Positions 5,593-62,787 of a stretch of DNA of 64,000 nt are shown here, in pieces. The notes under the pieces were generated by a model, which saw nothing but the letters and a program-made list of their open reading frames with translations, ran no database searches and had not been told where the DNA came from. Within the stretch, counting starts at the first letter, position 1. Each line of letters opens with the position of its first letter. The position numbers and the translations under genes are program-made. Location: the NCBI GenBank assembly GCA_050260105.1, contig JBLNBR010000008.1, positions 2,099-66,098 on the forward strand, in the 5' to 3' direction. This DNA is from Ignavibacteriales bacterium (GTDB taxonomy: Bacteria > Bacillota > Sulfobacillia > JABLXB01).

Positions 5593-7341
5593 ATGATGAC
5601 AACAGAAGGGACATATCCATTTCACCTTGGCGGAGTAAGCACGTGGTGCGATGCCCTGACGAAGGGCGTTCCGGCCGTGGATTTCATTCTCTATGCCATC
5701 CTCATGAACCCGTTCGTGACTCAGAAGTTCAGGACGTCCCCCAACGTGAAGGAACTGATAAAGGTACCCCTGTGGGGAACCGAGGAGCCCAGCGAGCACC
5801 TGACGCACATCCCGTTCTCTTCGGTCTATCTTGCCAAGCGCCGTACCGGCGAGGCAGTCATCAGGTCCGACTTCGTCCCGCTATTCGAAGGGCTGGTGCG
5901 GCAGCTGACGGCGGACGAAGGGCGGAGCGTTCCGGCGGTGGCCAGGACCCTATTCGAGATGTACAAGTATTTCAGACAGTACGACTACCAGACAACCTTC
6001 AAGTCACCCAGCGTGTGGGAGACTTTCAAGAGAGTCACACTCGAGGAAGTGGGCAGACTCGGTCGCAGGGACACGATCCCTACCCTGTTCGACCTGACGG
6101 AGAGCCTTGGATGGCTTTACAGGTTCTTCACCATCTTGAACACGCCGCTGCCAAAGGTGCATGTGACCCATTCAGCAGCCGCGGCGTTCTGCGGGATACC
6201 CTGTGTGATTTCGAAGCTCGAGAACAAGACGCCATACCTCCTGAGCGAGCACGGGATCTACCTGAGGGAGCAGTACATAGGCACGGCGCGGATGAGGCTG
6301 TCGATGTACTCGAGGAGATTCCTGCTCAACCTTGTGACGACGGTTGCACAGCTCAGCTATGAGTTTGCGGACCAGGTATCGCCTGTGTGCCAGTTCAATA
6401 CCCGCTGGGAACGCCGGATGGGAGTGCCGGAAGGCAGAATCAGAGTAGTCTACAACGGCGTCGATCCCGGGATCTACGCGCCAGCGCCGGATAAAGCCCA
6501 GGTGAGGCGCCCGCCGACGGTGGTGTGCGTTGCCCGAATAGACCCGATCAAGGACATGGAGACGCTCATTCGAACGGCGGCCCTGGTAAGACAGGCTGTG
6601 CCGGGTGTCAAGTTCGTCGTGTACGGCGCTCCCAGCTCGCAGTCGTATTTCGAGCGCTGCTACAAGTTAAGGTCGGAACTGGCCCTGGACGAGGTCTTCA
6701 TATTCGCGGGCCACACGAACGATGTGGCCGCCGCGTTCCGCACGGCGGACGTGGTCGCCCTGTCGAGCATATCGGAGGGCTTTCCGTACAGCGTAGTCGA
6801 GGCGATGATGTCGGGGAAGCCCATCGTGGCGACCGACGTCGGAGGGGTTCGTGAAGCGGTTGAGGGCTGCGGGTTTGTCGTGCCACCCCGGTCGCCGGAC
6901 AAGATGGCCACAGCCCTGGTGAAGTTGCTCGACGACGAACAGTTGAGGGCGGCGCTCGGGAAGCGGGCCAGGGAGAAGTCGCTGGAGTCGTTCACCATCG
7001 CCCGGCTGGTCAGCGAGTACCTGGATTCGTACGTCAGACTCCACGAGGGCGCGCTGCGTCGCTCGGCTGCCGCCAGCCGGAACAGGCAGGCGCTGTTCAC
7101 CGAGCGCGGCCTGGCGTTCATGGAGGCGGAGATGTGGCTCGAGGCTGTTGAACAGTTCAGGAGGGCCGTGGACGCCAATCCGTCGAGCCCTGCGGTTCCC
7201 GTCATACTCACGGAGATTGCTCAAGCATACAACAGTATGGGTCGCGTAGACCTTGCTCTCGTGGAGCTTCAGAAGGCGGAAATCCACGCGGAGATGGTGC
7301 TCGGGTTAACGTCCCCACTTGAACGGGCGGCAAACGGGTAG
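5593..7341 (+). CDS. PelF-like family 4 glycosyltransferase (DUF3492-type N-terminus) with C-terminal TPR-like tail
   Basis: N-terminus MMTTEGTYPFHLGGVSTW resembles the EGTYPYV.GGVSSW DUF3492 signature of PelF-type GT4s. The GT4 C-domain motif is EGFPYSVVEAMMSGKPIVATDVGG. TPR-like helices are at the C-terminus. The ORF-track start at 5383 is probably leader; TTG 5584 is an alternative start. Confidence 0.8.
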   Translation: MMTTEGTYPFHLGGVSTWCDALTKGVPAVDFILYAILMNPFVTQKFRTSPNVKELIKVPLWGTEEPSEHLTHIPFSSVYLAKRRTGEAVIRSDFVPLFEGLVRQLTADEGRSVPAVARTLFEMYKYFRQYDYQTTFKSPSVWETFKRVTLEEVGRLGRRDTIPTLFDLTESLGWLYRFFTILNTPLPKVHVTHSAAAAFCGIPCVISKLENKTPYLLSEHGIYLREQYIGTARMRLSMYSRRFLLNLVTTVAQLSYEFADQVSPVCQFNTRWERRMGVPEGRIRVVYNGVDPGIYAPAPDKAQVRRPPTVVCVARIDPIKDMETLIRTAALVRQAVPGVKFVVYGAPSSQSYFERCYKLRSELALDEVFIFAGHTNDVAAAFRTADVVALSSISEGFPYSVVEAMMSGKPIVATDVGGVREAVEGCGFVVPPRSPDKMATALVKLLDDEQLRAALGKRAREKSLESFTIARLVSEYLDSYVRLHEGALRRSAAASRNRQALFTERGLAFMEAEMWLEAVEQFRRAVDANPSSPAVPVILTEIAQAYNSMGRVDLALVELQKAEIHAEMVLGLTSPLERAANG

Positions 7342-7361
7342 CGACAAAGGTGGATTGAGCG

Positions 7362-7853
7362 ATGGGCAAGAAGTTCCCCAGGTCTCTGTGGGGTTACAGG
7401 CCTTCCGCCGTCGACGAGCATCTCGGATCCATTGCCCGGGACGCCGAGGAGAAGGCCAGGCAGCTGCGTGAGGAAACCGAACGGGCCCTTGAAGCCAACC
7501 GGGGTCTCAAGGAACAGGTGGAAATCGTTCAGAAGGAGATAGAGGGCTACAAAGAAAAGGAGCGCGCGGTTGCGCAGGCCATAATAGCTGCTCAACTCCG
7601 GGCGAGCAGTATCGAGGAAGAGGCCAGGAAAGTGGTGGAGGAACAGAAGCAGCGCGTGATCGCCGAGATCGCCGCGAAGCGGGTTGAGATGAACAGGGTG
7701 CGTGCTGAATTGGAGCGGTTCCGCCAGGCGTTTTCGCAGATGCTGGCCGCGATCGACGAGTCTCTGAAATCGGCGCCGCCTGTGGATATCGGCGATGTCG
7801 AGGTCTCTCTGGAGAAGGATTCAGTGGCTGACCGGACGGGAGGGTTTTCGTGA
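7362..7853 (+). CDS. DivIVA-domain coiled-coil protein
   Basis: The N-terminus FPRSLWGYRPSAVDEHL fits the DivIVA N-terminal domain pattern (F…GY…VD..L), followed by a long charged coiled coil. Confidence 0.65.
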   Translation: MGKKFPRSLWGYRPSAVDEHLGSIARDAEEKARQLREETERALEANRGLKEQVEIVQKEIEGYKEKERAVAQAIIAAQLRASSIEEEARKVVEEQKQRVIAEIAAKRVEMNRVRAELERFRQAFSQMLAAIDESLKSAPPVDIGDVEVSLEKDSVADRTGGFS

Positions 7854-50974: not shown

Positions 50975-51436
50975 ATGCACGGTCGCATTGTGGCTGTCTG
51001 CCGCAGCGAGACGAAGGGTGTGAGGAAAGCCGACATTGGCTCTGGCACGCTCAAGGAAGGATTTGGCCTGGAAGGGGACGCGCACGGCGGGGACTGGCAC
51101 CGCCAGGTCAGCCTGCTGTCGGTGAGCAGCATAGAGAAGATGAGATCGCAGGGACTCGACGTGGGTCCCGGCGATTTCGCGGAGAACCTTACGGTGGAAG
51201 GCCTGGACGTTTGGACCCTCCCCGTCGGGACGCGCCTGAGCGTGGGCGGCGCTCTGCTCGAGGTGACCCAGATCGGCAAGGAGTGCCACGCGGGATGCGA
51301 GATATTTCGCAAGGTCGGGCATTGCGTGATGCCCCGCGAGGGAATCTTTGCCAGGGTGCTGAAGAGCGGGCGTGTGAGCAACGGGGATCTGCTCGTCGCA
51401 GGTGACGAGATAGCTGTGGAGCGGGATGAGAGTTGA
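50975..51436 (+). CDS. MOSC-domain protein
   Basis: RIVAVCRSETKGVRK…GLEGDAHGGDWHRQVSLLS…LLEVTQIGKECH matches the MOSC beta-barrel pattern. Confidence 0.7.
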   Translation: MHGRIVAVCRSETKGVRKADIGSGTLKEGFGLEGDAHGGDWHRQVSLLSVSSIEKMRSQGLDVGPGDFAENLTVEGLDVWTLPVGTRLSVGGALLEVTQIGKECHAGCEIFRKVGHCVMPREGIFARVLKSGRVSNGDLLVAGDEIAVERDES

Positions 51437-51771
51437 CCGATCGCAGGATCATCTTCGCCGTATTGCTGATAGCAGGTGCTCTGTGGCTGGGCCTTGGTTA
51501 CGTGGGGGGTTACCGCGGGGAAGTGGTGGTCGTCAACGTCCAAGGGGTCGACGTGGAACGGTTGCCGCTCGAGCCCGCGCGTGAGCCTGTGAACAGGACC
51601 GTGCAAGGCGCCATAGGGCGAAGTACCTTCGAGATATCCGGAGGGAGGGTGAGAATGATCTCGTCGGACTGTCCCGACAAGGTGTGTGTGAAGATGGGCT
51701 GGATATCGCAAGCGGGGCAAGTGATCGTCTGCCTGCCCAACCGGGTCATTCTCAAGGTGGAGCCGCGTTGA
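51433..51771 (+). CDS. NusG-domain-II-containing small membrane-anchored protein
   Basis: N-terminal TM plus a beta-rich domain. Conserved partnership with the following Gx-transporter-family gene. Confidence 0.55.
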   Translation: MTDRRIIFAVLLIAGALWLGLGYVGGYRGEVVVVNVQGVDVERLPLEPAREPVNRTVQGAIGRSTFEISGGRVRMISSDCPDKVCVKMGWISQAGQVIVCLPNRVILKVEPR

Positions 51772-52331
51772 TCCGGGTCAGCACTTTCACGCTGGTGTAC
51801 CTGTCCATCCTGACGGCGCTCGCGACCGCCCTTCACGCCTTCGAAGCGTCGCTCCCTGTGCCATACCTTTTTCCGGGGGCGAAGCTGGGACTAGCCAATA
51901 TCGTCGGGCTGCACGTCATTCTTACGCATGGAACGGCGGCCGCTCTTGTCGTGACCGGCCTGAGGGCCGTCATCGGGAGCCTCGTGAGCGGCACCCTTTT
52001 CGGTATGGGATTCGCGCTGAGCCTATCAGGGGGGATGACCAGCACCGCTGTGATGGGCCTGTTGGCGGGCCTGACGCGAGCGCCTCGTGCGTCCGGCTCA
52101 CCCGGCCCGGTCGGAATAAGCGTTGCTGGTGCGGTTACGCACAACATGACTCAACTTGCGGTCGCCGCCCTAATCACGCGGCAGCCGGGGATCGTGTTCT
52201 ACCTGCCTGTGTTGCTGTTTTTCGCTGTACCCACCGGCGCGCTGGTGGGTCTCGTGGCCGGGAAGATGAAGCCGCTCGAAGCGATTGTCCGCGCGTTGTT
52301 GGACTCCAGGCGCCCCTCGCCTGGGGATTGA
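51768..52331 (+). CDS. Gx transporter family / heptaprenyl diphosphate synthase component I-like membrane protein (TTG start)
   Basis: LIRVSTFTLVYLSILTALATALHAFEASLPVPYLFPGAKLGLANI. Overlaps the upstream stop. Confidence 0.6.
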   Translation: MIRVSTFTLVYLSILTALATALHAFEASLPVPYLFPGAKLGLANIVGLHVILTHGTAAALVVTGLRAVIGSLVSGTLFGMGFALSLSGGMTSTAVMGLLAGLTRAPRASGSPGPVGISVAGAVTHNMTQLAVAALITRQPGIVFYLPVLLFFAVPTGALVGLVAGKMKPLEAIVRALLDSRRPSPGD

Positions 52332-52362
52332 GGGGCGGACGTTGAGAATGGGGTGAAACGTA

Positions 52363-53004
52363 ATGCGGATGAGGAAACCGCCGGATGTGGTGATCAGGAG
52401 ACTGGCCATGTACTTGAGGCTACTCGAGGAACATGAATACTATCTCGGCCAGTATATCTCGTCACACGAACTTGGGGAGCTGGCCGGGGTGACCTCCGCC
52501 CAGATTCGTAAGGACCTGGACATGTTCGGTGAGTTCGGGAAGCAGGGGGTGGGCTACCCCGTGCGCGAGCTCAAGCGGCAACTCATACATATCCTCAAGG
52601 TGGACAGGCCCTCGAACATTGCCATCATAGGCATCGGCGAACTGGGCTCCGCGTTTGCCCGGTATCTTACCAGAGACCCCGCCGGAAGGAAGGGCGAGGG
52701 GGCCAGCGCGTTCCGCGTCGCTGCCCTTCTTGACGTTGACCCCGGCAAAGTCGGCCAGTCAGTCGCGGGGCTTCCCATCTATCATCTCGACGACCTCGAG
52801 GCCAGGGTCAAGGAAATGGATATCAAGATCGCGCTTCTCACAGTGCCGGCCCCCGTGGCGCAGAGCGTCCTCGACAGGGGGATCGAGGCGGGGATCAGGC
52901 TTTTCATCAACTTCGCGCCTGTCAGGCTCAAGGCGCCGGAGGACGTGATAGTCAATCATGCCGATGTGAGCCTGGAGCTCCACCAGCTGGGCTATTACCT
53001 GTAG
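52363..53004 (+). CDS. rex: Redox-sensing transcriptional repressor Rex
   Basis: VIRRLAMYLRLL winged-helix N-terminus, NAD-binding Rossmann motif IAIIGIGELG, and overall Rex layout. Confidence 0.8.
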   Translation: MRMRKPPDVVIRRLAMYLRLLEEHEYYLGQYISSHELGELAGVTSAQIRKDLDMFGEFGKQGVGYPVRELKRQLIHILKVDRPSNIAIIGIGELGSAFARYLTRDPAGRKGEGASAFRVAALLDVDPGKVGQSVAGLPIYHLDDLEARVKEMDIKIALLTVPAPVAQSVLDRGIEAGIRLFINFAPVRLKAPEDVIVNHADVSLELHQLGYYL

Positions 53005-53033
53005 TCTGGGAGTCACCCGATGTCGCCCTGCTC

Positions 53034-54233
53034 ATGGTCGTCATGCGGGCGCCGGGAATGATTAGTGCGAAGGGGGCGTCAGCGTTGGACTTCGTTCTTA
53101 GTGAGGAGCACGAAAGCATTAAGAAATCGGTGCGGGACGTGGTCGACAGGGCCATCGGGCCCAGGGCTCAGGCGCTCGACATTTCCGGGGAATTCCCGTG
53201 GGAAAACGCAAAAGCCCTGGCGGACTTGGGATATTTCGGGCTGCATGTTCCGGAGGAATACGGTGGCGCCGGCCTCGATTCACTGGCGCTGGCTCTCGTG
53301 ATCGAGGAAATCGCGAGGGGATGCGCCTCGACCGCGCTGATGTATGAGGTCCACTGCAGCCTGTGCTCGGAATCCATCCTCAAGTTCGGGACGGAGGATC
53401 AGAAGCGCAGGTACCTGCCCATGCTCGCTTCAGGTAAGGCGCTCGGAGCGTTTGCGCTGACCGAGCCGGGGGCCGGCTCGGACGCCGGGTCCCTCAGAAC
53501 GGTGGCGACCCTGGACGGGGAACATTACGTTCTCGACGGTCAGAAATGCTTCATCACAAACGGCAACACCGCTGGTGTGCTCGTGGTTTTTGCTCTCACC
53601 GACAAGGCCAAGGGCGTGAAGGGGATCAGCGCGTTCATTGTGGAGAAGGGCTTCCCAGGGTTCAAGACGGGGCGCGTCGAGGACAAGATGGGCCTCCGCG
53701 CGTCGTCCGCGGCCGAGCTGTTTTTCGATAAGTGCGTCGTCCCGAAGGAAAACCTCCTCGGCAAGGAGGGCGAGGGCTTCAAGATAGCCATGACATCGCT
53801 GGACGAGGGCCGGATCGGCGTCGCCGCGCAGGCGACCGGTATAGCGCAGGCGGCGCTCGAGGCCGCCGCGAGGTACGCGAAGCAGAGGGTCCAGTTCAAC
53901 CAGCCGATAGCCGGCTTCCAGGCCATCCAGTTCATGCTGGCCGAAATGGCCACGGACATCGAGGCGGCGCGGACCATGTACCAGAGGGCCGCCTGGATGC
54001 GTTCCCAGGGGATGAGATGCACGACGGAAGCGGCGATGGCGAAGATGTTCGCCTCCTCGATGGCGGTGCAGCACTGCATCAAGGCCATACAGATCCACGG
54101 CGGCTACGGCTACATGAGGGAGTACAACGTCGAGAGGTATCTCAGGGACGCAAAGGTCACCGAGATTTACGAGGGGACCAACGAGATCATGAAGATGATT
54201 GTCTCGGGGCAGGTACTCCGGGACATCTCGTGA
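53034..54233 (+). CDS. Acyl-CoA dehydrogenase (short/medium chain, butyryl-CoA dehydrogenase-like)
   Basis: ALTEPGAGSDAGS and QIHGGYGYMREYNVERYLRDAKVTEIYEGTNEI (catalytic Glu region). Confidence 0.85.
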   Translation: MVVMRAPGMISAKGASALDFVLSEEHESIKKSVRDVVDRAIGPRAQALDISGEFPWENAKALADLGYFGLHVPEEYGGAGLDSLALALVIEEIARGCASTALMYEVHCSLCSESILKFGTEDQKRRYLPMLASGKALGAFALTEPGAGSDAGSLRTVATLDGEHYVLDGQKCFITNGNTAGVLVVFALTDKAKGVKGISAFIVEKGFPGFKTGRVEDKMGLRASSAAELFFDKCVVPKENLLGKEGEGFKIAMTSLDEGRIGVAAQATGIAQAALEAAARYAKQRVQFNQPIAGFQAIQFMLAEMATDIEAARTMYQRAAWMRSQGMRCTTEAAMAKMFASSMAVQHCIKAIQIHGGYGYMREYNVERYLRDAKVTEIYEGTNEIMKMIVSGQVLRDIS

Positions 54234-54385
54234 GGGCTCCGCAACTGGGGGACGCGGGGAAAGCGGCCGCCGAAGGGTAGCGCCGATATCAGAGAGAGCG
54301 TTCGGGTTTTGTCTGTGACAAGTCGAAGGTAACAATCCGATGACATCGAAACTAGTAGGTGTGAAGCATCGATGGATAACTTCGG

Positions 54386-56023
54386 GTGAAGAATGTGAAG
54401 ACCACGCAGTGTGGGAGAAAAGGCCGGGATGTCTCCCGAATCATGCGACGGGTGCCATCCAAGAACACGTCTCCGGAGATGTTGCTGAGGAGGGCCTTGT
54501 GGTCTTCGGGCCTCAGATACCGAGTCTGCTTCGCGGCGCTGTCTGGACACCCGGACATAGTGTTCCCCTGTGCTCGTCTGGCGGTTTTCGTCGACGGTGA
54601 CTATTGGCATGGCGGCCAGTGGAAGAAGAGGAACCTCACCGCGCTGGAGGATCAGTTCTCGAGGACGGAGTCGCGAGACTACTGGCTGTACAAGATTCGC
54701 CGCAACATGTGTCGTGACTCGTCCGTGACTGCCGAGCTGCTCGCGGACGGTTGGACGGTGCTTCGTTTCTGGGAGAGCGATATCCGGCGCGACCTCGAAG
54801 GGTGTGTGCGGATGGTGGTGGATGCGGTAAGGAACGGCACAAGCCCGAGCGGGTTGGCCATTGGGCCATCCAAGACCGTAGCTGAGTTCTTCGCAGGGAT
54901 CGGCCTAATGCGGATGGGGTTGGAGAAAAAGGGCTGGCGTGTTCTGTTCGCCAATGATATCGAACCGCAGAAGTATGACATGTATAAGGGCCACTTCGAC
55001 GACTACCCAGGCCACTTCGTGTTGGGCGATGTACACCACTTGACAGAGGCCCAGGTTCCCACTGTCACACTCGCGACCGCCTCGTTCCCGTGTAATGATT
55101 TGTCTCTTGCCGGAGCAAGACGCGGGCTTTGCGGAAGACAATCCTCCGCCTTCTGGGGGTTCATGCGAGTGATCGAGGACATGGGGGCCAGGAAGCCACT
55201 CATAGTGCTCCTCGAAAACGTGACCGGTTTCCTGACGTCGCACGCGGGAGACGATTTCCGGAGCGCGCTACTTGAACTCAACAGGCTGAATTACGTTGTG
55301 GACGCGATTATTCTGGACGCCGCCAACTTCGTTCCCCAGAGCAGACAGAGGCTCTTTGTTGTGGCGGTTCAGGAGGACAACAGGGCCTACGAGATAGCTC
55401 GGGAACCGCGCCGGTTCTTTGAGAGTGAAGTCAGACCGAAGGCGTTAGCCGATTTCATCCTCAATAACCCGGAGATTCGCTGGAGAATACGCGATTTGCC
55501 GTCGCCACCTCCGTGCAACAGTAGTCTTGAATCGATACTGGAAGACCTTCCGAGCGACGCCCCTGAGTGGTGGAGTAGGCAACGGGCGGTTTATCTTCTG
55601 AACCAGATGAGTCCTCGCCATCGCCAGACTGCTGAGCGCATGATATCTTCAGACAAGGTGTCGTATGGGACTGTGTTCCGCCGGATCCGTGGTGGCAGGT
55701 CCGTGGCCGAGTTGAGAACTGATGGGATCGCGGGATGTCTGAGGACTCCTAGAGGCGGGAGCGGAAGACAGATTCTGTTTCAAGCGGGCAAGGGATCGTA
55801 TGCGGTGAGGCTTCTCACTCCGAGGGAGTGCGCGAGACTCATGGGGGCCGCCGATTTCCGCATCACTGTCCCGATGAACCAAGCCCTCTTCGGCTTCGGC
55901 GACGCTGTCTGTGTACCGGTCATTGAATGGATCGCGGAACACTACCTGAACCCGCTGGTGAACGAGATGATGCGGGGACGCCCCCTCCGAGTTGAGGGAA
56001 GGATGCAAGCGTATGGAGGCTAG
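54386..56023 (+). CDS. Single-polypeptide fusion: Vsr-type very-short-patch-repair endonuclease (N-terminal ~150 aa) plus DNA (cytosine-5)-methyltransferase
   Basis: Vsr signature: SKNTSPE…PDIVFPCARLAVFVDGDYWHG…WTVLRFWES. m5C-MTase motifs: I FAGIGL, IV FPCNDLSLAG, VI ENVTGF, VIII QSRQRLFVVAV, X GDAVCVPV. One uninterrupted ORF. Confidence 0.8.
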   Translation: MKNVKTTQCGRKGRDVSRIMRRVPSKNTSPEMLLRRALWSSGLRYRVCFAALSGHPDIVFPCARLAVFVDGDYWHGGQWKKRNLTALEDQFSRTESRDYWLYKIRRNMCRDSSVTAELLADGWTVLRFWESDIRRDLEGCVRMVVDAVRNGTSPSGLAIGPSKTVAEFFAGIGLMRMGLEKKGWRVLFANDIEPQKYDMYKGHFDDYPGHFVLGDVHHLTEAQVPTVTLATASFPCNDLSLAGARRGLCGRQSSAFWGFMRVIEDMGARKPLIVLLENVTGFLTSHAGDDFRSALLELNRLNYVVDAIILDAANFVPQSRQRLFVVAVQEDNRAYEIAREPRRFFESEVRPKALADFILNNPEIRWRIRDLPSPPPCNSSLESILEDLPSDAPEWWSRQRAVYLLNQMSPRHRQTAERMISSDKVSYGTVFRRIRGGRSVAELRTDGIAGCLRTPRGGSGRQILFQAGKGSYAVRLLTPRECARLMGAADFRITVPMNQALFGFGDAVCVPVIEWIAEHYLNPLVNEMMRGRPLRVEGRMQAYGG

Positions 56024-56972
56024 GCTTCAGGCTGTGAAGGCGCTTGCATTATGGTACGAAACGCTCCCACGCAGAGCCGGAGGTTTTCCTGCCCGCGGGA
56101 CAATTGCGACGGCTCTGGTCGTGCTTGATAGGTTGAAAGACACCTACGATCTTAGACTCGAATCGCACCGAGCCTCGGGGAAATCACAGATAAGATCTGC
56201 GAGCGGCGCAGCAGTGTCTCGGATACTTGCCAGGTTTGGGGAGAAGAGACCGTTTCTCAAGGAGGGTGGGCGAACCAACCGTGGCGCGCCGGGGGACATC
56301 GCCGGAATGCTGCAGTCGCTGCGATCGTGTAATCTACACCTACTTGAAGAAGGTGAAAGAGTCGAAGTTCTTGAGGCGCTCCAGCAGTTCTTGACCGAGA
56401 GGGTCAGGGATTATCATAACAGACAACGCCTGAGAGTCTACTATGATGCTTCGACAACCACCTGGAAAGCCGTACGCGACCTTTTGGAGACGGCCAGGCA
56501 GAGCGGCAAGGACGCGCCTGTCGCGCAATACCTCGTTGGGGCCAAGCTGAAGATTCGCTTCCCCGACATAAACGTCGAGAATGAATCATATAGCACAGCT
56601 GACGACCAGCTTGGCCGGCCAGGTGACTTTGTCATTGGGGATACCGTCTTCCATGTTACCGTTAGGCCAACCCCGGCACTGTACGAGAAATGCAGAGAGA
56701 ACGTCAGTCAGGGCTTCAGGGTGTATCTTCTGGTCCCTGATTCGTGCGTTCTTGGGGCCAGGCAGAACGCTGAAGCAACACTTCCGGGGAAAGTGGCCGT
56801 AGAATCCGTAGAGTCTTTCGTTTCGCAGAACATCGAAGAAATCTCGGCCTTCAGGCGGGATCGCGTAACCGATGGACTGGGCCGGCTCTTGCAGGTGTAC
56901 AATGAGAGGGTTAATGCGGTCGAGACAGACAAGTCTTTGCTGTTGGAGATCCCCCGCAACCTTCGCCCCTGA
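56013..56972 (+). CDS. Putative restriction endonuclease (PD-(D/E)xK-like) partnered with the upstream methyltransferase
   Basis: DFVIGDTVFHVTV…YEKCR is a D…E-x-K-like triad. Translationally coupled to the MTase (overlap). No other family recognised. Confidence 0.35.
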   Translation: MEARLQAVKALALWYETLPRRAGGFPARGTIATALVVLDRLKDTYDLRLESHRASGKSQIRSASGAAVSRILARFGEKRPFLKEGGRTNRGAPGDIAGMLQSLRSCNLHLLEEGERVEVLEALQQFLTERVRDYHNRQRLRVYYDASTTTWKAVRDLLETARQSGKDAPVAQYLVGAKLKIRFPDINVENESYSTADDQLGRPGDFVIGDTVFHVTVRPTPALYEKCRENVSQGFRVYLLVPDSCVLGARQNAEATLPGKVAVESVESFVSQNIEEISAFRRDRVTDGLGRLLQVYNERVNAVETDKSLLLEIPRNLRP

Positions 56973-57124
56973 GTCATGTCTGCTGTATTGCTTACTTGCG
57001 GTCAACCCCAGATGGTGACCCCGTGGCGCCGCAAAGTCCAGCCTGTTCAGTGGTATTGGTTTCGCTACATCAAGAGACTTGTTGTGAACTGGACAGAATA
57101 CTATCTGGCGAACTGGCAGGCTTA

Positions 57125-57152
57125 TTGACAATCTCGCTGCAAATACTATATT
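57125..57152 (+). promoter_or_regulatory. Sigma-70-type promoter TTGACA-N16-TATATT upstream of hspR-dnaK-grpE
   Basis: Read directly. RBS GGAGGG lies 8 nt before the hspR GTG. Confidence 0.55.
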
Positions 57153-57193
57153 TGTTGGTAGAAGGGATCCTGCGGCAAAGGAGGGATGTAACG

Positions 57194-57535
57194 GTGTACT
57201 CGTCCGGACTCCACGGGCCTGACGAGCCGGTTTACACCATCAGCGTCGCAGCGCGCCTTCTGGGAGTGAGTCCCCAGATGCTCCGGCAGCTCGAGAGGGA
57301 AGGGATCCTCGAGCCCGCACGAACGGGCGCGAACGCCAGGTTGTACAGCCAAAACGAGCTGGCGCTCCTGAGGCACGTGTGCTTTCTTATCAGGGACCGC
57401 GGGATAAACATCGCCGGTGTCAAGGCCATCCTGGAGATGGAGCACCGGCAGAACATTGCGGGAGGAGGAGTCACCACCGGAGGGGCTGACTTGAGGGAAA
57501 GGGAAACGGTAGGGTCCGGCGCCGGCAAGAGGTGA
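57194..57535 (+). CDS. hspR: MerR-family heat-shock regulator HspR
   Basis: YTISVAARLLGVSPQMLRQLEREGILEPARTGANARLYSQNELALLRHVCFL is the MerR/HspR HTH. Lies directly upstream of dnaK. Confidence 0.7.
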   Translation: MYSSGLHGPDEPVYTISVAARLLGVSPQMLRQLEREGILEPARTGANARLYSQNELALLRHVCFLIRDRGINIAGVKAILEMEHRQNIAGGGVTTGGADLRERETVGSGAGKR

Positions 57536-57579
57536 CCGCCGGACATCATGCAAACGCCGCATAGTGTGGAGGTGGCTCT

Positions 57580-59559
57580 ATGAGCAAAGTTGTGGGGATA
57601 GACCTTGGCACCACCAACTCCGTCATTGCCGTGATGGAGGCCGGCAAGCCGACCGTGATCATCAACACGGAAGGGTCCCGGCTCACCCCTTCGGTCGTGG
57701 CTTTCACCAGGACCGGAGAGCAACTGGTGGGCCAGCTTGCGCGGAGACAAGCGGTGCTCAACCCGGAAAACACGGTTTATTCTATCAAGCGTTTCATGGG
57801 GCGCAGGTACGACGAGGTCGCTGAAGAGCGAAAACGCGTCCCGTACCGCGTCACGGCGGGCAGCAACAACGAAGCCAGGGTGCACATTCCCGCCGCCAAC
57901 AGGGACCTGACTCCTGAAGAGATTTCCGCCATGATCCTCCGGAAGATGAAAGAGGACGCCGAGAAATACCTTGGCGAGACGATAACGAAGGCGGTCATCA
58001 CCGTGCCCGCCTACTTCAATGACTCCCAGCGCCAGGCGACGAAGGACGCTGGACGGATCGCCGGGCTCGAGGTGCTGCGGATCATCAATGAACCGACGGC
58101 CGCCTCGCTGGCCTACGGCATGGATAAGAAAAAGAACCAGACGATACTCGTCTGGGACCTCGGCGGCGGGACATTCGACGTGTCCGTGCTAGAGGTGGGG
58201 GATGGCGTGTTCGAGGTGAAATCGACCTCCGGCGACACGCACCTCGGCGGCGACGACTACGACCAGCGGGTAGTCGGTTACATCGCGGACCAGTTCATGA
58301 GGGACCAGGGGATTGACCTGCGGAAGGACCGCCAGGCCCTTCAGCGATTGATCGAAGCCTCCGAGAAGGCCAAGATCGAGCTATCGCAGGTATTCGAGAC
58401 GAACATCAGCTTGCCGTTTATCACCGCGGATCAGTCGGGCCCCAAGCACCTCGAATACAAGCTCACACGGGCCAAGTTCGAAGAGATCACCGCCGACCTG
58501 ACGGACAGGTGTGTCGGGCCGTTCAGGCAGGCGCTCAGTGACGCCAAGTTGACAGCCCAGCAGCTCGACGAGGTGATTCTGGTCGGCGGCGCGACGAGGA
58601 TGCCCGTCATCCAGGACCTCGTCAAGAAGCTCACGGGCAAAGAACCCAACAGGAGCGTCAACCCTGACGAAGTGGTGGCGGTGGGCGCCGCCATCCAGGC
58701 CGGCGTACTCGCGGGCGAGGTCAAGGACATTGTCCTGCTCGACGTCACCCCGCTCACACTCGGGCTCGAAACACTCGGCGGCGTGGCGACACCGCTCATC
58801 CCGCGCAACACGACGATCCCGACGAAGAAGAGCGAGATCTTCACCACGGCCGCGGACGGGCAGGATACTGTCGAAATCCACGTGCTGCAGGGCGAGAGGC
58901 CCATGGCGCGCGACAACCGCACGCTCGGCCGGTTCCACTTGCAAGGGATACCCCCTGCTCCGCGCGGCGTTCCCAAGATCGAGGTGACGTTCGATATCGA
59001 TGCCAACGGCATCCTCAATGTCGCCGCGAAGGACCTGGCTACGAACAAGGAGCAGAGGATTACCCTCACCGCTTCGACGCAGTTGACCAGGGACCAAGTG
59101 GAGAATCTGGTGCAAGAGGCGCAGAAGCACGCTGAGGAGGACGCCAAGGCGCGCGAGGCAGTCGAGGCCAAGAACAGGGCCGATAACCTCATCTACAACG
59201 TGGAGAAGAACCTGAAGGAAGTGGGCGACAGGCTGCCGCCCGCGGACAAATCCAACGTGGAGAACGCGATCAAGAACCTCCGGGAGGCGCTCAGCTCGAA
59301 CGACACCGAGCGGATCAAGAAGGCCACTGACGAACTGCAACAGGCCTCGTACAAGGTCGCCGAGGAATTGTACAGGAAGGCCGGCCCGCAGCCAGGGGCA
59401 GGCGGTACCCCCGGCGAGGCCGGAGGCGCGCCCGGCGCATCCGGTGCTCCGGGTGCGGGGCCCGGCGGCCCCGGGGTAGGTGGGCCTGGAGCAGGGGGCC
59501 CCGGCCAGCAGGGCAATGTATACGATGCTGAATACAAAGAGAAGAAGGACGATAAGTGA
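57580..59559 (+). CDS. dnaK: Molecular chaperone DnaK (Hsp70)
   Basis: [20 protein letters not shown] and the Gly/Pro-rich C-terminal tail. Confidence 0.97.
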
Positions 59560-61124: not shown

Positions 61125-61202
61125 CGGGGCGTAGCGCAGTTTGGCTAGCGCGCATGGTTCGGGACCATGAGGTCGGTGGTTCAAGTCCACTCGCCCCGAC
61201 CA
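61125..61202 (+). tRNA. tRNA-Pro (anticodon CGG), CCA encoded
   Basis: Cloverleaf folds by hand. Acceptor CGGGGCG/CGCCCCG, D-stem GCGC, anticodon stem CATGG/CCATG with loop TTCGGGA, T-arm GGTGG-TTCAAGT-CCACT, discriminator A plus CCA. Confidence 0.85.
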
Positions 61203-61275: not shown

Positions 61276-62487
61276 CTAAGAGCTCATCTGGGTGGGAGCG
61301 TCAACAGCGAGGATGCTATCCAGTCTTCGAGCCGCCCGCTCCTTGAGACCCATTATCACGTGGCTGTATGTATCAAGGGTGGTAGTAATGTTCGTGTGGC
61401 CAAGCAGCTCCTGCACGACTTTGGGGTGTTCGCCCGCCTCCAGTAGCTGCGTAGCATAGGTATGGCGCAAGGCATGGAAGGAAACGTGAGGTAGTCCGGC
61501 CTTGGCAAGTACGGATTCGAACCGGTGCCCAAAGTTTGTGGGGTCGAGAGGGTTGCCGTTCTCGGCGGCAAAAACGAGGTTCTGATCGTCGTACGCGCCC
61601 CCCAGGAGGATTCTCTCCTCCAACTGGCGACGTCTATGATGCCTGAGGGCTTCAATGGCTGCCTTAGGAATGGGGAGCGTTCTCTTCGATTTCTCCGTCT
61701 TGGGTTCCTGAAATACCAGGGCAGTACGCCTGTCCGCCGAATCCTGAGCGTACACTCGTTCCAGCGACCGGGTGACTCTGACAAGGCCGCGTTCGAGGTC
61801 CACATCGCTCCACCTAAGGGCGAGAATCTCGCCGCGCCGCAACCCTGACCCAATAGCAAGAACGAACGCAGCGTAAAGCCTGTGGTTCCGTACGGTCTTC
61901 AGAAGATGCTGAATTTCCGATGTCGTCAGGGGTCTTATCTCTCTTCTCTTCCGCTTTGGGAGTTTCACTGCTTCGGCGGGGTTCCTGGGAATGAGCTGCT
62001 CCCTAACAGCCTGCTTAAGGGCTCCGTAGATGATCGTATGCATGTTGCGCACTGACTTTGGAGACAGCCCTCCGCGCCCGTCAACTCTGCCATTCTGCAG
62101 TCTCTCATTGATGAACCCCTGCAGATGGCTAGGCTGGAGTCGGCGCAACTGGATTGAGCCTAGCCCTGGCTTTATGTGACGGCGGATCATGGTCTCATAA
62201 GAGTCCCGAGTGCAAGGACTAACGTTGTCTCGCACATACTTCTTGAACCAAAGATCGAACCAATCGCCTACAGTTGTGGTAGTCGGTTCCACAAAGACCC
62301 CCGAGTCCAGTTCGGCCAGGACCCTGGTGAGTTTTTCCTTGACCTCCATCCGGGTCCTGCCGTAGAGAGTCATTCGCTTGATCTTGCCAGTTTCAGGATC
62401 CCTTCCCACGGTGGCCTGAGCCATCCACCGACCGTCGGGGCGCTGAACAATCGTCCCTTCCCCTGATCCCCTTCGTTTCCTGGCCAA
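61276..62487 (-). mobile_element. int: Tyrosine-type site-specific integrase (phage/ICE integrase family), TTG start; 3' end 74 nt from the tRNA-Pro 3' end
   Basis: N-terminus ARKRRGSGEGTIVQRPDGRW (integrase SAM-like N-domain). Catalytic C-domain: R in LRRGEILALRW, HALRHTYAT, and nucleophile Y in TLDTYSHV. RBS AAAAGGAGGG precedes the TTG. Flank is low GC. Confidence 0.85.
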
Positions 62488-62787
62488 GGGCCAACCCTCC
62501 TTTTCTGGTCGCGGTATCCTATGGCAGGATATTCGCCATCCAAGCAGGGATTCCTTGGAGAAAACGAACATATGTTTGGATATATCGAATTTTTCCTCCC
62601 AAGAAAAAAGGGCGCGGTGTTTTGAGAGCCTGTGGCCCAAGGTATTGCGCAAAACTGCGCTTGGCATAACAATTGCGCCCTGAACCAGATAGTCCTCGCA
62701 CCCCACCGCAGCTATCGCGCAATTCCGCAGGAATAGGCAGTTGAGAGCTGAAATAGCAGAGTGTAACCAGAATGAGAGCAAGTTAGA

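Follow-up and report, generated by a model that had tools for sequence, protein, structure and literature searches.

Because 5-methylcytosine (m5C) is mutagenic, the DNA methyltransferases that produce it carry a cost in C-to-T transitions, unless the resulting T:G mismatches are repaired by the nickase Vsr. In Escherichia coli, the vsr gene overlaps the 3′ end of dcm, which encodes a solitary methyltransferase, and the very-short-patch repair of the Dcm/Vsr system is finished by DNA polymerase I (Pol I) and ligase. Vsr genes also occur in restriction–modification (R-M) systems. For example, the NmeDI system of Neisseria meningitidis lies between pheS and pheT and consists of a Vsr gene followed by the genes for M.NmeDI (an m5C methyltransferase; RCCGGB/RCCGGY) and R.NmeDI (PMC7973814, PMC6789123). 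R.NmeDI is a protein of 351 amino acids (aa), encoded by a gene that has a nine-codon overlap with the end of nmeDIM. The enzyme is a tetramer that requires two sites and cleaves 12/7 on either side of RCCGGY; it had no similarity to Cfr10I or BsrFI, and the only similar proteins were putative enzymes from Solibacter usitatus and Pseudoalteromonas atlantica (PMC2095814). It has been described as a symmetric type IIS enzyme by Pingoud et al. (PMC4081073). The Neisseria Vsr enzymes are stimulated by MutL, and those of the V.NgoAXIII type, or "second group", form a class distinct from E. coli Vsr that has its highest activity on GTCGGT/ACCGGC, which corresponds to RCCGGY after deamination (PMC6116569). 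In a Marinobacter island related to SGI1, Vsr, DUF4928, and a C5 cytosine methyltransferase (C5-MTase) are encoded as separate genes (PMC9035990). Here, we describe a locus with the same three components in a 64,000-nucleotide (nt) stretch of a genome labeled Ignavibacteriales bacterium (assembly GCA_050260105.1, contig JBLNBR010000008.1, positions 2,099 to 66,098 of the forward strand); this whole stretch is hereafter called the window. The locus contains two overlapping genes, the first encoding a Vsr domain fused to a C5-MTase and the second a DUF4928 protein, and is likely to be a two-gene type II R-M cassette composed of a Vsr–MTase and a DUF4928 endonuclease.

The first gene (54386..56023, + strand; ORF1) is a single open reading frame (ORF) of 545 aa starting at GTG 54386, in which no internal stop codon was found. 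Its Vsr domain (54434..54826, +, residues ~17–147) matched PF03852 (Vsr; 77.4 bits, cutoff 27, residues 17–81), the NCBIfam model TIGR00632 (vsr; 106.3 bits, cutoff 97.85, residues 17–132) and, in a sequence search of the PDB, E. coli Vsr (1cw0; E 1e-10, residues 17–134). A poorly conserved linker (54827..54874, +, residues ~148–163) connects it to the C5-MTase domain (54875..55972, +, residues ~164–529), which matched PF00145 (DNA_methylase; 158.5 bits, residues 165–519), TIGR00675 (dcm; 158.3 bits), and PADLOC MTase_II (407 bits), as well as M.HhaI in the PDB sequence search (E 1e-24). The predicted structure of this domain superposes on M.HhaI and M.HaeIII (Foldseek, M.HhaI E 2e-17), and the methyltransferase motifs I (FAGIG), IV (FPCND), VI (ENV), VIII (QSRQR), and X (GDAV) occur in canonical order and are invariant in the family. 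The original prediction, made from the sequence without database searches, had placed a Vsr domain and a complete C5-MTase in one 545-aa ORF, and this was borne out, with both domains scoring above the curated cutoffs. In the alignment of 40 fusion homologues, the only variable parts were the N-terminus, the linker, and a loop at ~330–345, and the Vsr part, the MTase motifs, and the target-recognition region were all strongly conserved. The conservation of the target-recognition region suggests one specificity shared across the fusion family. In terms of the translation start, GTG 54395 is a possible alternative to GTG 54386, and the Logan gene call begins at TTG 54497 (508 aa). One of the two upstream GTG codons is preferred because a start at TTG 54497 would remove the conserved N-terminal Vsr motif RDxSxIMRxVxSxxTxPE and, with it, E31 (the equivalent of E. 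coli E25); the family alignment likewise favors the upstream GTG. Translation of a separate methyltransferase from within ORF1 was also considered and rejected, because there was no convincing internal start or ribosome-binding site at the Vsr/MTase boundary.

The second gene overlaps the end of the first. Its longest frame, read from a TTG codon (ORF2; 55992..56972, +), encodes 326 aa and, as had been predicted, overlaps the ORF1 stop (by 32 nt), but the likelier start is ATG 56013, which is also used in the public gene calls and gives a 319-aa DUF4928 protein (56013..56972, +), the candidate type II restriction endonuclease of the system. This ATG sits 9 nt downstream of a Shine–Dalgarno sequence, GAGGGAAGGA (55994–56003), and the gene starting there overlaps the TAG stop codon of ORF1 (56021–56023) by 11 nt, so that the segment 55994..56023 (+) forms a translational-coupling junction. 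ORF2 matched PF16280 (DUF4928) over its full length (332 bits, profile positions 1–306 of 306) and the PADLOC model PDLC03543 "REase_II" (176 bits, E 2e-52). The protein is predicted to consist of an N-terminal helical domain (~1–182) and a C-terminal alpha/beta domain (~183–319). Among 85 DUF4928 representatives with pairwise identities below 50%, the conserved polar residues were R87, R90, Q172, K178, R182, D197, D205, H214, T216, N230, E267, N273, E276, N297, and E304. Six of these residues (D197, D205, H214, T216, N230, and E267) are invariant and cluster in the C-terminal alpha/beta domain, where the conserved strand residues read PGD205...H214-V-T216.

The organization of the locus resembles that of NmeDI in several respects. 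Both cassettes lie between housekeeping genes and have the order Vsr (V), methyltransferase (M), restriction gene (R) on one strand, with R overlapping the end of M (by nine codons in NmeDI, and by 11 nt here, or 32 nt from the TTG). The R proteins are of similar size (351 aa versus 319–326 aa) and lack classical restriction endonuclease relatives, and the only relatives reported for R.NmeDI came from Acidobacteria (Solibacter) and gammaproteobacteria, where DUF4928 also occurs. The locus differs from NmeDI in that Vsr and the methyltransferase form one polypeptide. It differs in the same way from Vsr of the V.NgoAXIII type, which is likewise encoded directly upstream of an NmeDI-type methyltransferase but is a stand-alone protein. 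Judging from gene organization and the published description of NmeDI, we lean modestly toward placing the locus among the NmeDI-type systems. With its two domains, DUF4928 has a layout that would fit a symmetric type IIS enzyme such as R.NmeDI, and by the same analogy, recognition of RCCGGY and two-sided 12/7 cleavage are possibly features of this locus as well. No Neisseria or Solibacter usitatus sequence surfaced among the names of 20 DUF4928 representatives, in a homologue search seeded from Bryobacteraceae, or among annotated plasmids and phages. The word statistics of the 64-kb window showed no avoidance of RCCGGY (191 occurrences) or of any 6-bp palindrome; the only depleted short words were CTAG and AGCT, and these statistics were not decisive for a guess at the recognition site.

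The genomic context of DUF4928 throughout its distribution was consistent with its role as a restriction enzyme. The family comprises 1,100 clusters at 50% identity, and the 221 GTDB species representatives in which it was found belong to at least 10 phyla. Among 80 species-representative genomes encoding DUF4928, 74 had a C5-MTase gene on the same strand that was directly adjacent to or overlapped the DUF4928 gene, and the remaining six DUF4928 genes were mostly at contig edges; adjacent or overlapping M and R genes were also the rule in most of the related loci. This pairing extended to distant members (27–36% identity) on plasmids of Enterobacter, Achromobacter, Pseudomonas, and Burkholderia. 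Furthermore, some proteins combine an N-terminal C5-MTase and a C-terminal DUF4928 in a single chain (P0282, 721 aa; P0386, 756 aa; P0343, 586 aa, partial). Another apparent fusion, a 623-aa ORF at locus L071, was set aside, as its N-terminal 330 residues contained no domain and it is probably an artefact of stop-to-stop reading. A Vsr–MTase homologue (P0033) was present in two metagenome populations, in one of which the DUF4928 gene is intact (L164, 5073–6032, 319 aa), whereas in the other it is split into pieces of 71 and 220 aa (L165, 5073–5944) and the MTase is intact. The splitting of DUF4928 beside an intact MTase is typical of the loss of a toxic gene. In both populations, the cassette adjoins a type I hsdM/hsdS pair.

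Family and context make it very probable that DUF4928 is the restriction enzyme of the system. Several observations weigh against this assignment. The original prediction had based it on a D...E-x-K-like triad of the PD-(D/E)xK type, but no [D/E]-x-K tripeptide occurs anywhere in ORF2, and the conserved residues are different ones. Moreover, Foldseek found no match for ORF2 in the PDB (best E 0.18), sequence searches found none in the PDB or NCBIfam, and a Pfam scan of the C-terminal domain at a weak threshold returned only DUF4928 itself. DUF4928 genes also occur with no methyltransferase in the available flanks at two loci (L025, 4548–6954; L071, 4687–5586). Such orphan genes are unexpected for a restriction enzyme; they may be inactive, or an MTase gene located elsewhere may protect their hosts. 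All of this, together with the label "domain of unknown function" given by NCBI and Pfam, would be accommodated if DUF4928 were not an endonuclease but a conserved partner of an orphan methyltransferase with a repair domain, acting, for instance, as a regulator or methylation reader. However, we consider this unlikely, in view of the match to the PADLOC type II restriction endonuclease model, the single-chain fusions of M with DUF4928, the disruption of DUF4928 next to an intact M in L165, and the clustering of invariant acidic, His, and Asn residues in one alpha/beta domain. A near-obligate pairing with a C5-MTase gene, with overlapping genes on one strand, marks an R-M pair, and DUF4928 shows it across phyla as well as on conjugative plasmids. 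The reading of the locus as a compact R-M cassette with a coupled, very probable restriction gene is supported, but the motif on which it had been built is not. A kinship between DUF4928 and Vsr, considered on account of a shared "GRPxDFV" strand, was rejected, because hhalign comparisons of the N- and C-terminal profiles with the Vsr profile gave probabilities below 1%. At L025, the DUF4928 gene lies beside a truncated Cys-type Vsr and an opposite-strand ORF with a NOV_C domain (PF13020).

The Vsr domain of the fusion belongs to a zinc-less subtype, a property that the original prediction had missed. In the alignment to 1cw0, the catalytic residues D51, H69, and E25 of E. coli Vsr correspond to D57, H75, and E31, with D70 also among the catalytic equivalents, and the mismatch-intercalating residues F67, W68, and W86 correspond to Y73, W74, and W100. 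In the 40 fusion homologues (60–68% identity), D57, H75, E31, W74, and W100 were invariant and position 73 was always F or Y, a pattern of sequence conservation that indicates purifying selection on the catalytic and intercalating residues. The positions of the zinc ligands of E. coli Vsr (C66, H71, C73, and C117 in the numbering of the 1cw0/1vsr structures) are occupied here by D72, G77 (variable), W79, and S131, respectively, and the structural zinc site is therefore absent. These ligands were replaced in all of the 27–28 fused homologues examined. The locus thus shares with E. coli Dcm–Vsr the genetic coupling of a C5-MTase to Vsr and the conservation of the catalytic and intercalating equivalents, but differs from it in the reversed order (Vsr is N-terminal), in the covalent fusion in place of translational coupling, in the absence of the Cys/His zinc site, in ~8 extra residues following the WH motif, and in the presence of a restriction gene.

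Among the related loci, all fused copies but one carried the signature G-D/E-F/Y-W-H-G-x-Q-W ... W-E-S, the exception being G-N-F-W-H-D-G-Q-W (L058). In contrast, the separate Vsr genes of the unfused sister loci were mostly of the classical form, G-C-F-W-H-x-H-x-C ... W-E-C; the exceptions were a frameshifted fusion (L007) and a stand-alone zinc-less Vsr (L037). The latter (FVDGEFWHGHQWEK; 6954–7430, − strand; PF03852, 112 bits) is encoded in Parapedobacter downstream of an unfused M-R pair, which means that the subtype is not strictly confined to fusions. With the canonical structural zinc site missing, nicking activity is not to be assumed, and the AlphaFold confidence is low around the altered region (predicted local distance difference test, pLDDT, ~58–59 for residues 71–90). 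These two points would fit a Vsr domain that lost all four zinc ligands and is decaying and inactive, leaving the methyltransferase as the only functional part of the protein. This is quite unlikely, however, because the replacement residues (D72, Q78, W79, and S131) are as invariant as the catalytic ones among homologues of 60–68% identity from at least eight phyla, as expected of a functional domain rather than a remnant, and because the same zinc-less subtype exists as a stand-alone Vsr (L037).

The distribution of Vsr among DUF4928 loci showed that it is not an obligatory part of the system. In the 74 loci with both M and R, Vsr was fused to M in 27 (VM-R), encoded separately in 28, and absent from 19. 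The loci with a separate Vsr mostly had the order M-R-V and sometimes R-M-V or V-M-R. The unfused DUF4928 systems (M-R-V, R-M-V, or M-R), which occur in Bacteroidota, Chloroflexota, proteobacterial plasmids, and the Marinobacter island, share with our locus the R family, a related MTase, and often Vsr as the third component, but their Vsr is a separate protein, usually encoded downstream of R and of the classical Cys type. Vsr is thus an optional third component of the DUF4928 R-M family, serving the METHYLTRANSFERASE. Conversely, when we sampled genomes starting from the fusion, two of the four fusions (P0089 and P0105) were solitary, located without DUF4928 among housekeeping genes (L167, 3501–5117; L171, 3501–5075), with mscL and ribonucleotide reductase in the flanks. 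These look like orphan methyltransferases that have kept a built-in repair domain. The other two (P0033 and P0094) had DUF4928 downstream, with a type I system or an abortive-infection gene (AIPR) as a neighbor. Downstream of the VM-R cassette in one genome (GCA_021790195.1; L169, 6151–8491) are an AIPR abortive-infection gene and an IS3-type transposase; this cassette is in a genuine defense and mobile context, unlike the one in the window.

That the V-M module persists without R is in keeping with a methylation-linked role of Vsr in mutation avoidance and speaks against a restriction nuclease function of the Vsr-like domain. The latter proposal, in which the Vsr-like domain would be a restriction nuclease or its subunit, gene 1 a nuclease–methyltransferase fusion of the type IIC/IIG kind, and DUF4928 a specificity or accessory factor, draws on the use of Vsr-fold domains as DNases in other defense proteins (PMC3710099), on weak matches of ORF1 to DUF559 and REase_MTES_1575, and again on the missing nuclease motif of DUF4928. 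It is nevertheless very unlikely: the three intercalating aromatics and the catalytic residues specific to mismatch-recognizing Vsr are retained, and the TIGR00632 score is above its cutoff. In addition, M and DUF4928 manage without any Vsr at the 19 loci mentioned above, and 28 others use a separate, classical Vsr in the same role. Solitary V-M fusions are also stable among housekeeping genes, where a nuclease without sequence discrimination would be toxic to its own host.

The fusion itself is genuine. A Logan assembly of run SRR24035586 (L081), made with a different assembler, was 100% identical to the window over positions 51254–58019 (6,766 bp), and its gene caller likewise placed Vsr and MTase in one product. 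In a collection of 5.8 billion proteins, all of the best 120 homologues (120/120; 61–68% identity, 515–600 aa) carried both PF03852 and PF00145, so that, counting these best matches, the Vsr–MTase architecture is shared by at least 120 protein clusters, which belong to many phyla. Although the window comes from a metagenome-assembled genome (MAG) and some long-read MAG homologues have split genes (L007 and L008), an artefact of sequencing or assembly, such as a missed stop codon or a frameshift between separate vsr and dcm genes, is exceedingly improbable given the identical independent assembly and the single chains and conserved linker length of the top 120 homologue clusters.

The hosts of the fusion homologues include Firmicutes, Acidobacteria, Poribacteria, Armatimonadetes, Chloroflexi, Desulfobacterota, and others. 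The original prediction had presented the fusion as a departure from the usual arrangement of Vsr as a separate small gene; rather than being unusual, it is shared by all of these best homologues and is already annotated in databases, as "DNA mismatch endonuclease Vsr" by NCBI and as "DNA (cytosine-5)-methyltransferase 1" by the Joint Genome Institute (JGI). We found no explicit description of a Vsr–C5-MTase fusion in the open-access literature searched, in which the only paper to mention DUF4928 was that on the Marinobacter island (PMC9035990). The family appears to be widespread and database-annotated but uncharacterized. In a neighbor-joining tree of the MTase domains from 71 loci, 27 of the 28 fused proteins formed one clade, with the unfused DUF4928 loci as sister clades. 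The only non-fused members of the fused clade were a contig-truncated gene (L070), a frameshifted gene (L007), and a degenerate locus (L018). Since the fused MTases are confined almost entirely to one clade, the fusion arose essentially once and then spread horizontally.

Taken as a type II R-M cassette, the locus would work as follows. The C-terminal domain of the gene 1 product would methylate cytosine at C5 within a specific site. Wherever deamination of the 5-methylcytosine gives a T:G mismatch, the N-terminal Vsr domain would nick 5′ of the T. This nick would start very-short-patch repair, to be completed by the host, and so prevent the C-to-T decay of methylated sites. The gene 2 product, DUF4928, would cleave incoming unmethylated DNA, and its overlapping start would couple its translation to that of the protective methyltransferase, which would come first. 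In this scheme, T:G nicking by a zinc-less Vsr, cleavage by DUF4928, and the recognition sequence are putative elements, whereas the domain identities, the intact catalytic motifs, the conservation of the fusion, the linkage of DUF4928 to methyltransferases, and the coupling geometry are observed. A more specific version, which we offer tentatively and regard as rather doubtful in its full form, is that the zinc-less Vsr depends on its tether to the MTase, whose target-recognition domain, expected to bind deaminated T:G cognate sites tightly, delivers the nickase to them in cis, and that DUF4928 is an NmeDI-like endonuclease with an unclassified nuclease fold. If cis-delivery holds, one polypeptide would write 5-methylcytosine and start repair at exactly its own methylated sites.

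The locus is probably a type II R-M cassette of an established kind, similar to NmeDI, in which the Vsr accessory is fused to the methyltransferase, and its interest lies in the association of the fusion with the zinc-less Vsr, in the persistence of solitary V-M fusions, and in DUF4928 as a large family of restriction enzymes. By joining the methylation writer covalently to the repair nuclease, a conserved fusion of this kind, present in many phyla, would resolve the mutational trade-off of m5C in a compact and natural way. The fusion also offers a clean system in which to study how a mismatch nickase is targeted and whether Vsr needs sequence recognition of its own, as well as whether Vsr stabilizes methyltransferase genes, as proposed for Caulobacter (PMC12907096). 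On the present evidence, DUF4928, although still labeled as of unknown function, would be a large restriction-endonuclease family whose catalytic fold is unassigned, and if it were linked to R.NmeDI, the family would gain a prototype with known biochemistry.

In terms of genomic setting, the cassette lies, as predicted, between core genes and is lower in guanine–cytosine (GC) content than its surroundings. Upstream are rex (52363–53004) and an acyl-CoA dehydrogenase gene (acdh, 53034–54233), and downstream are hspR (probable start GTG 57195) and dnaK (57580–59559), followed by grpE, after which there is no dnaJ. The GC content of the cassette is 0.574 versus a window mean of 0.606, which places it in the 5th percentile of same-size windows, and GC at third codon positions (GC3) is 0.70 in the V-M gene and 0.62 in the DUF4928 gene, compared with 0.74–0.83 in rex, acdh, dnaK, and grpE. 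The lower GC and GC3, together with a patchy phylogeny in which homologues of ~65% identity are scattered over unrelated phyla, fit horizontal acquisition of the cassette. To this extent, the idea of an acquired defense island is supported, but no mobility genes were found at the cassette, and the direct or inverted repeats flanking it were only short matches at chance level. An empty-site comparison based on a metagenome scan for DnaK was uninformative, since the closest relatives were 75–80% identical and lacked conserved upstream synteny.

The spacer upstream of the cassette (54234..54385, 152 bp) contains a 5-bp inverted repeat, TTGTC-TGT-GACAA (54301–54313), which could be an operator. 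A consensus scan of this spacer found no sigma-70-like promoter, a point against our interpretation of the cassette. The downstream spacer (56973..57194) contains an intact, near-consensus hspR–dnaK promoter (TTGACA-16-TATATT, 57125–57152). This promoter is preceded by a direct repeat, GAACTGGACAG / GAACTGGCAGG (the whole element spanning 57084–57152), and no classical HAIR element was seen upstream of hspR.

Beyond the dnaK operon, ~4 kb from the cassette, a tRNA-Pro(CGG) gene (61125–61202, +) adjoins a gene for a 501-aa tyrosine integrase (61276–62781, −; PF00589 and Phage_int_SAM_3), both at the start of a stretch of lower GC (0.51–0.58) that continues through the rest of the window, as if a separate mobile element had integrated at the tRNA gene. 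Finally, the GC content of the window (60.5%) and its gene content (rex, then hspR-dnaK-grpE) seem unusual for a genome labeled Ignavibacteriales, and its closest DnaK relatives are only 75–80% identical; this label may be a binning error.

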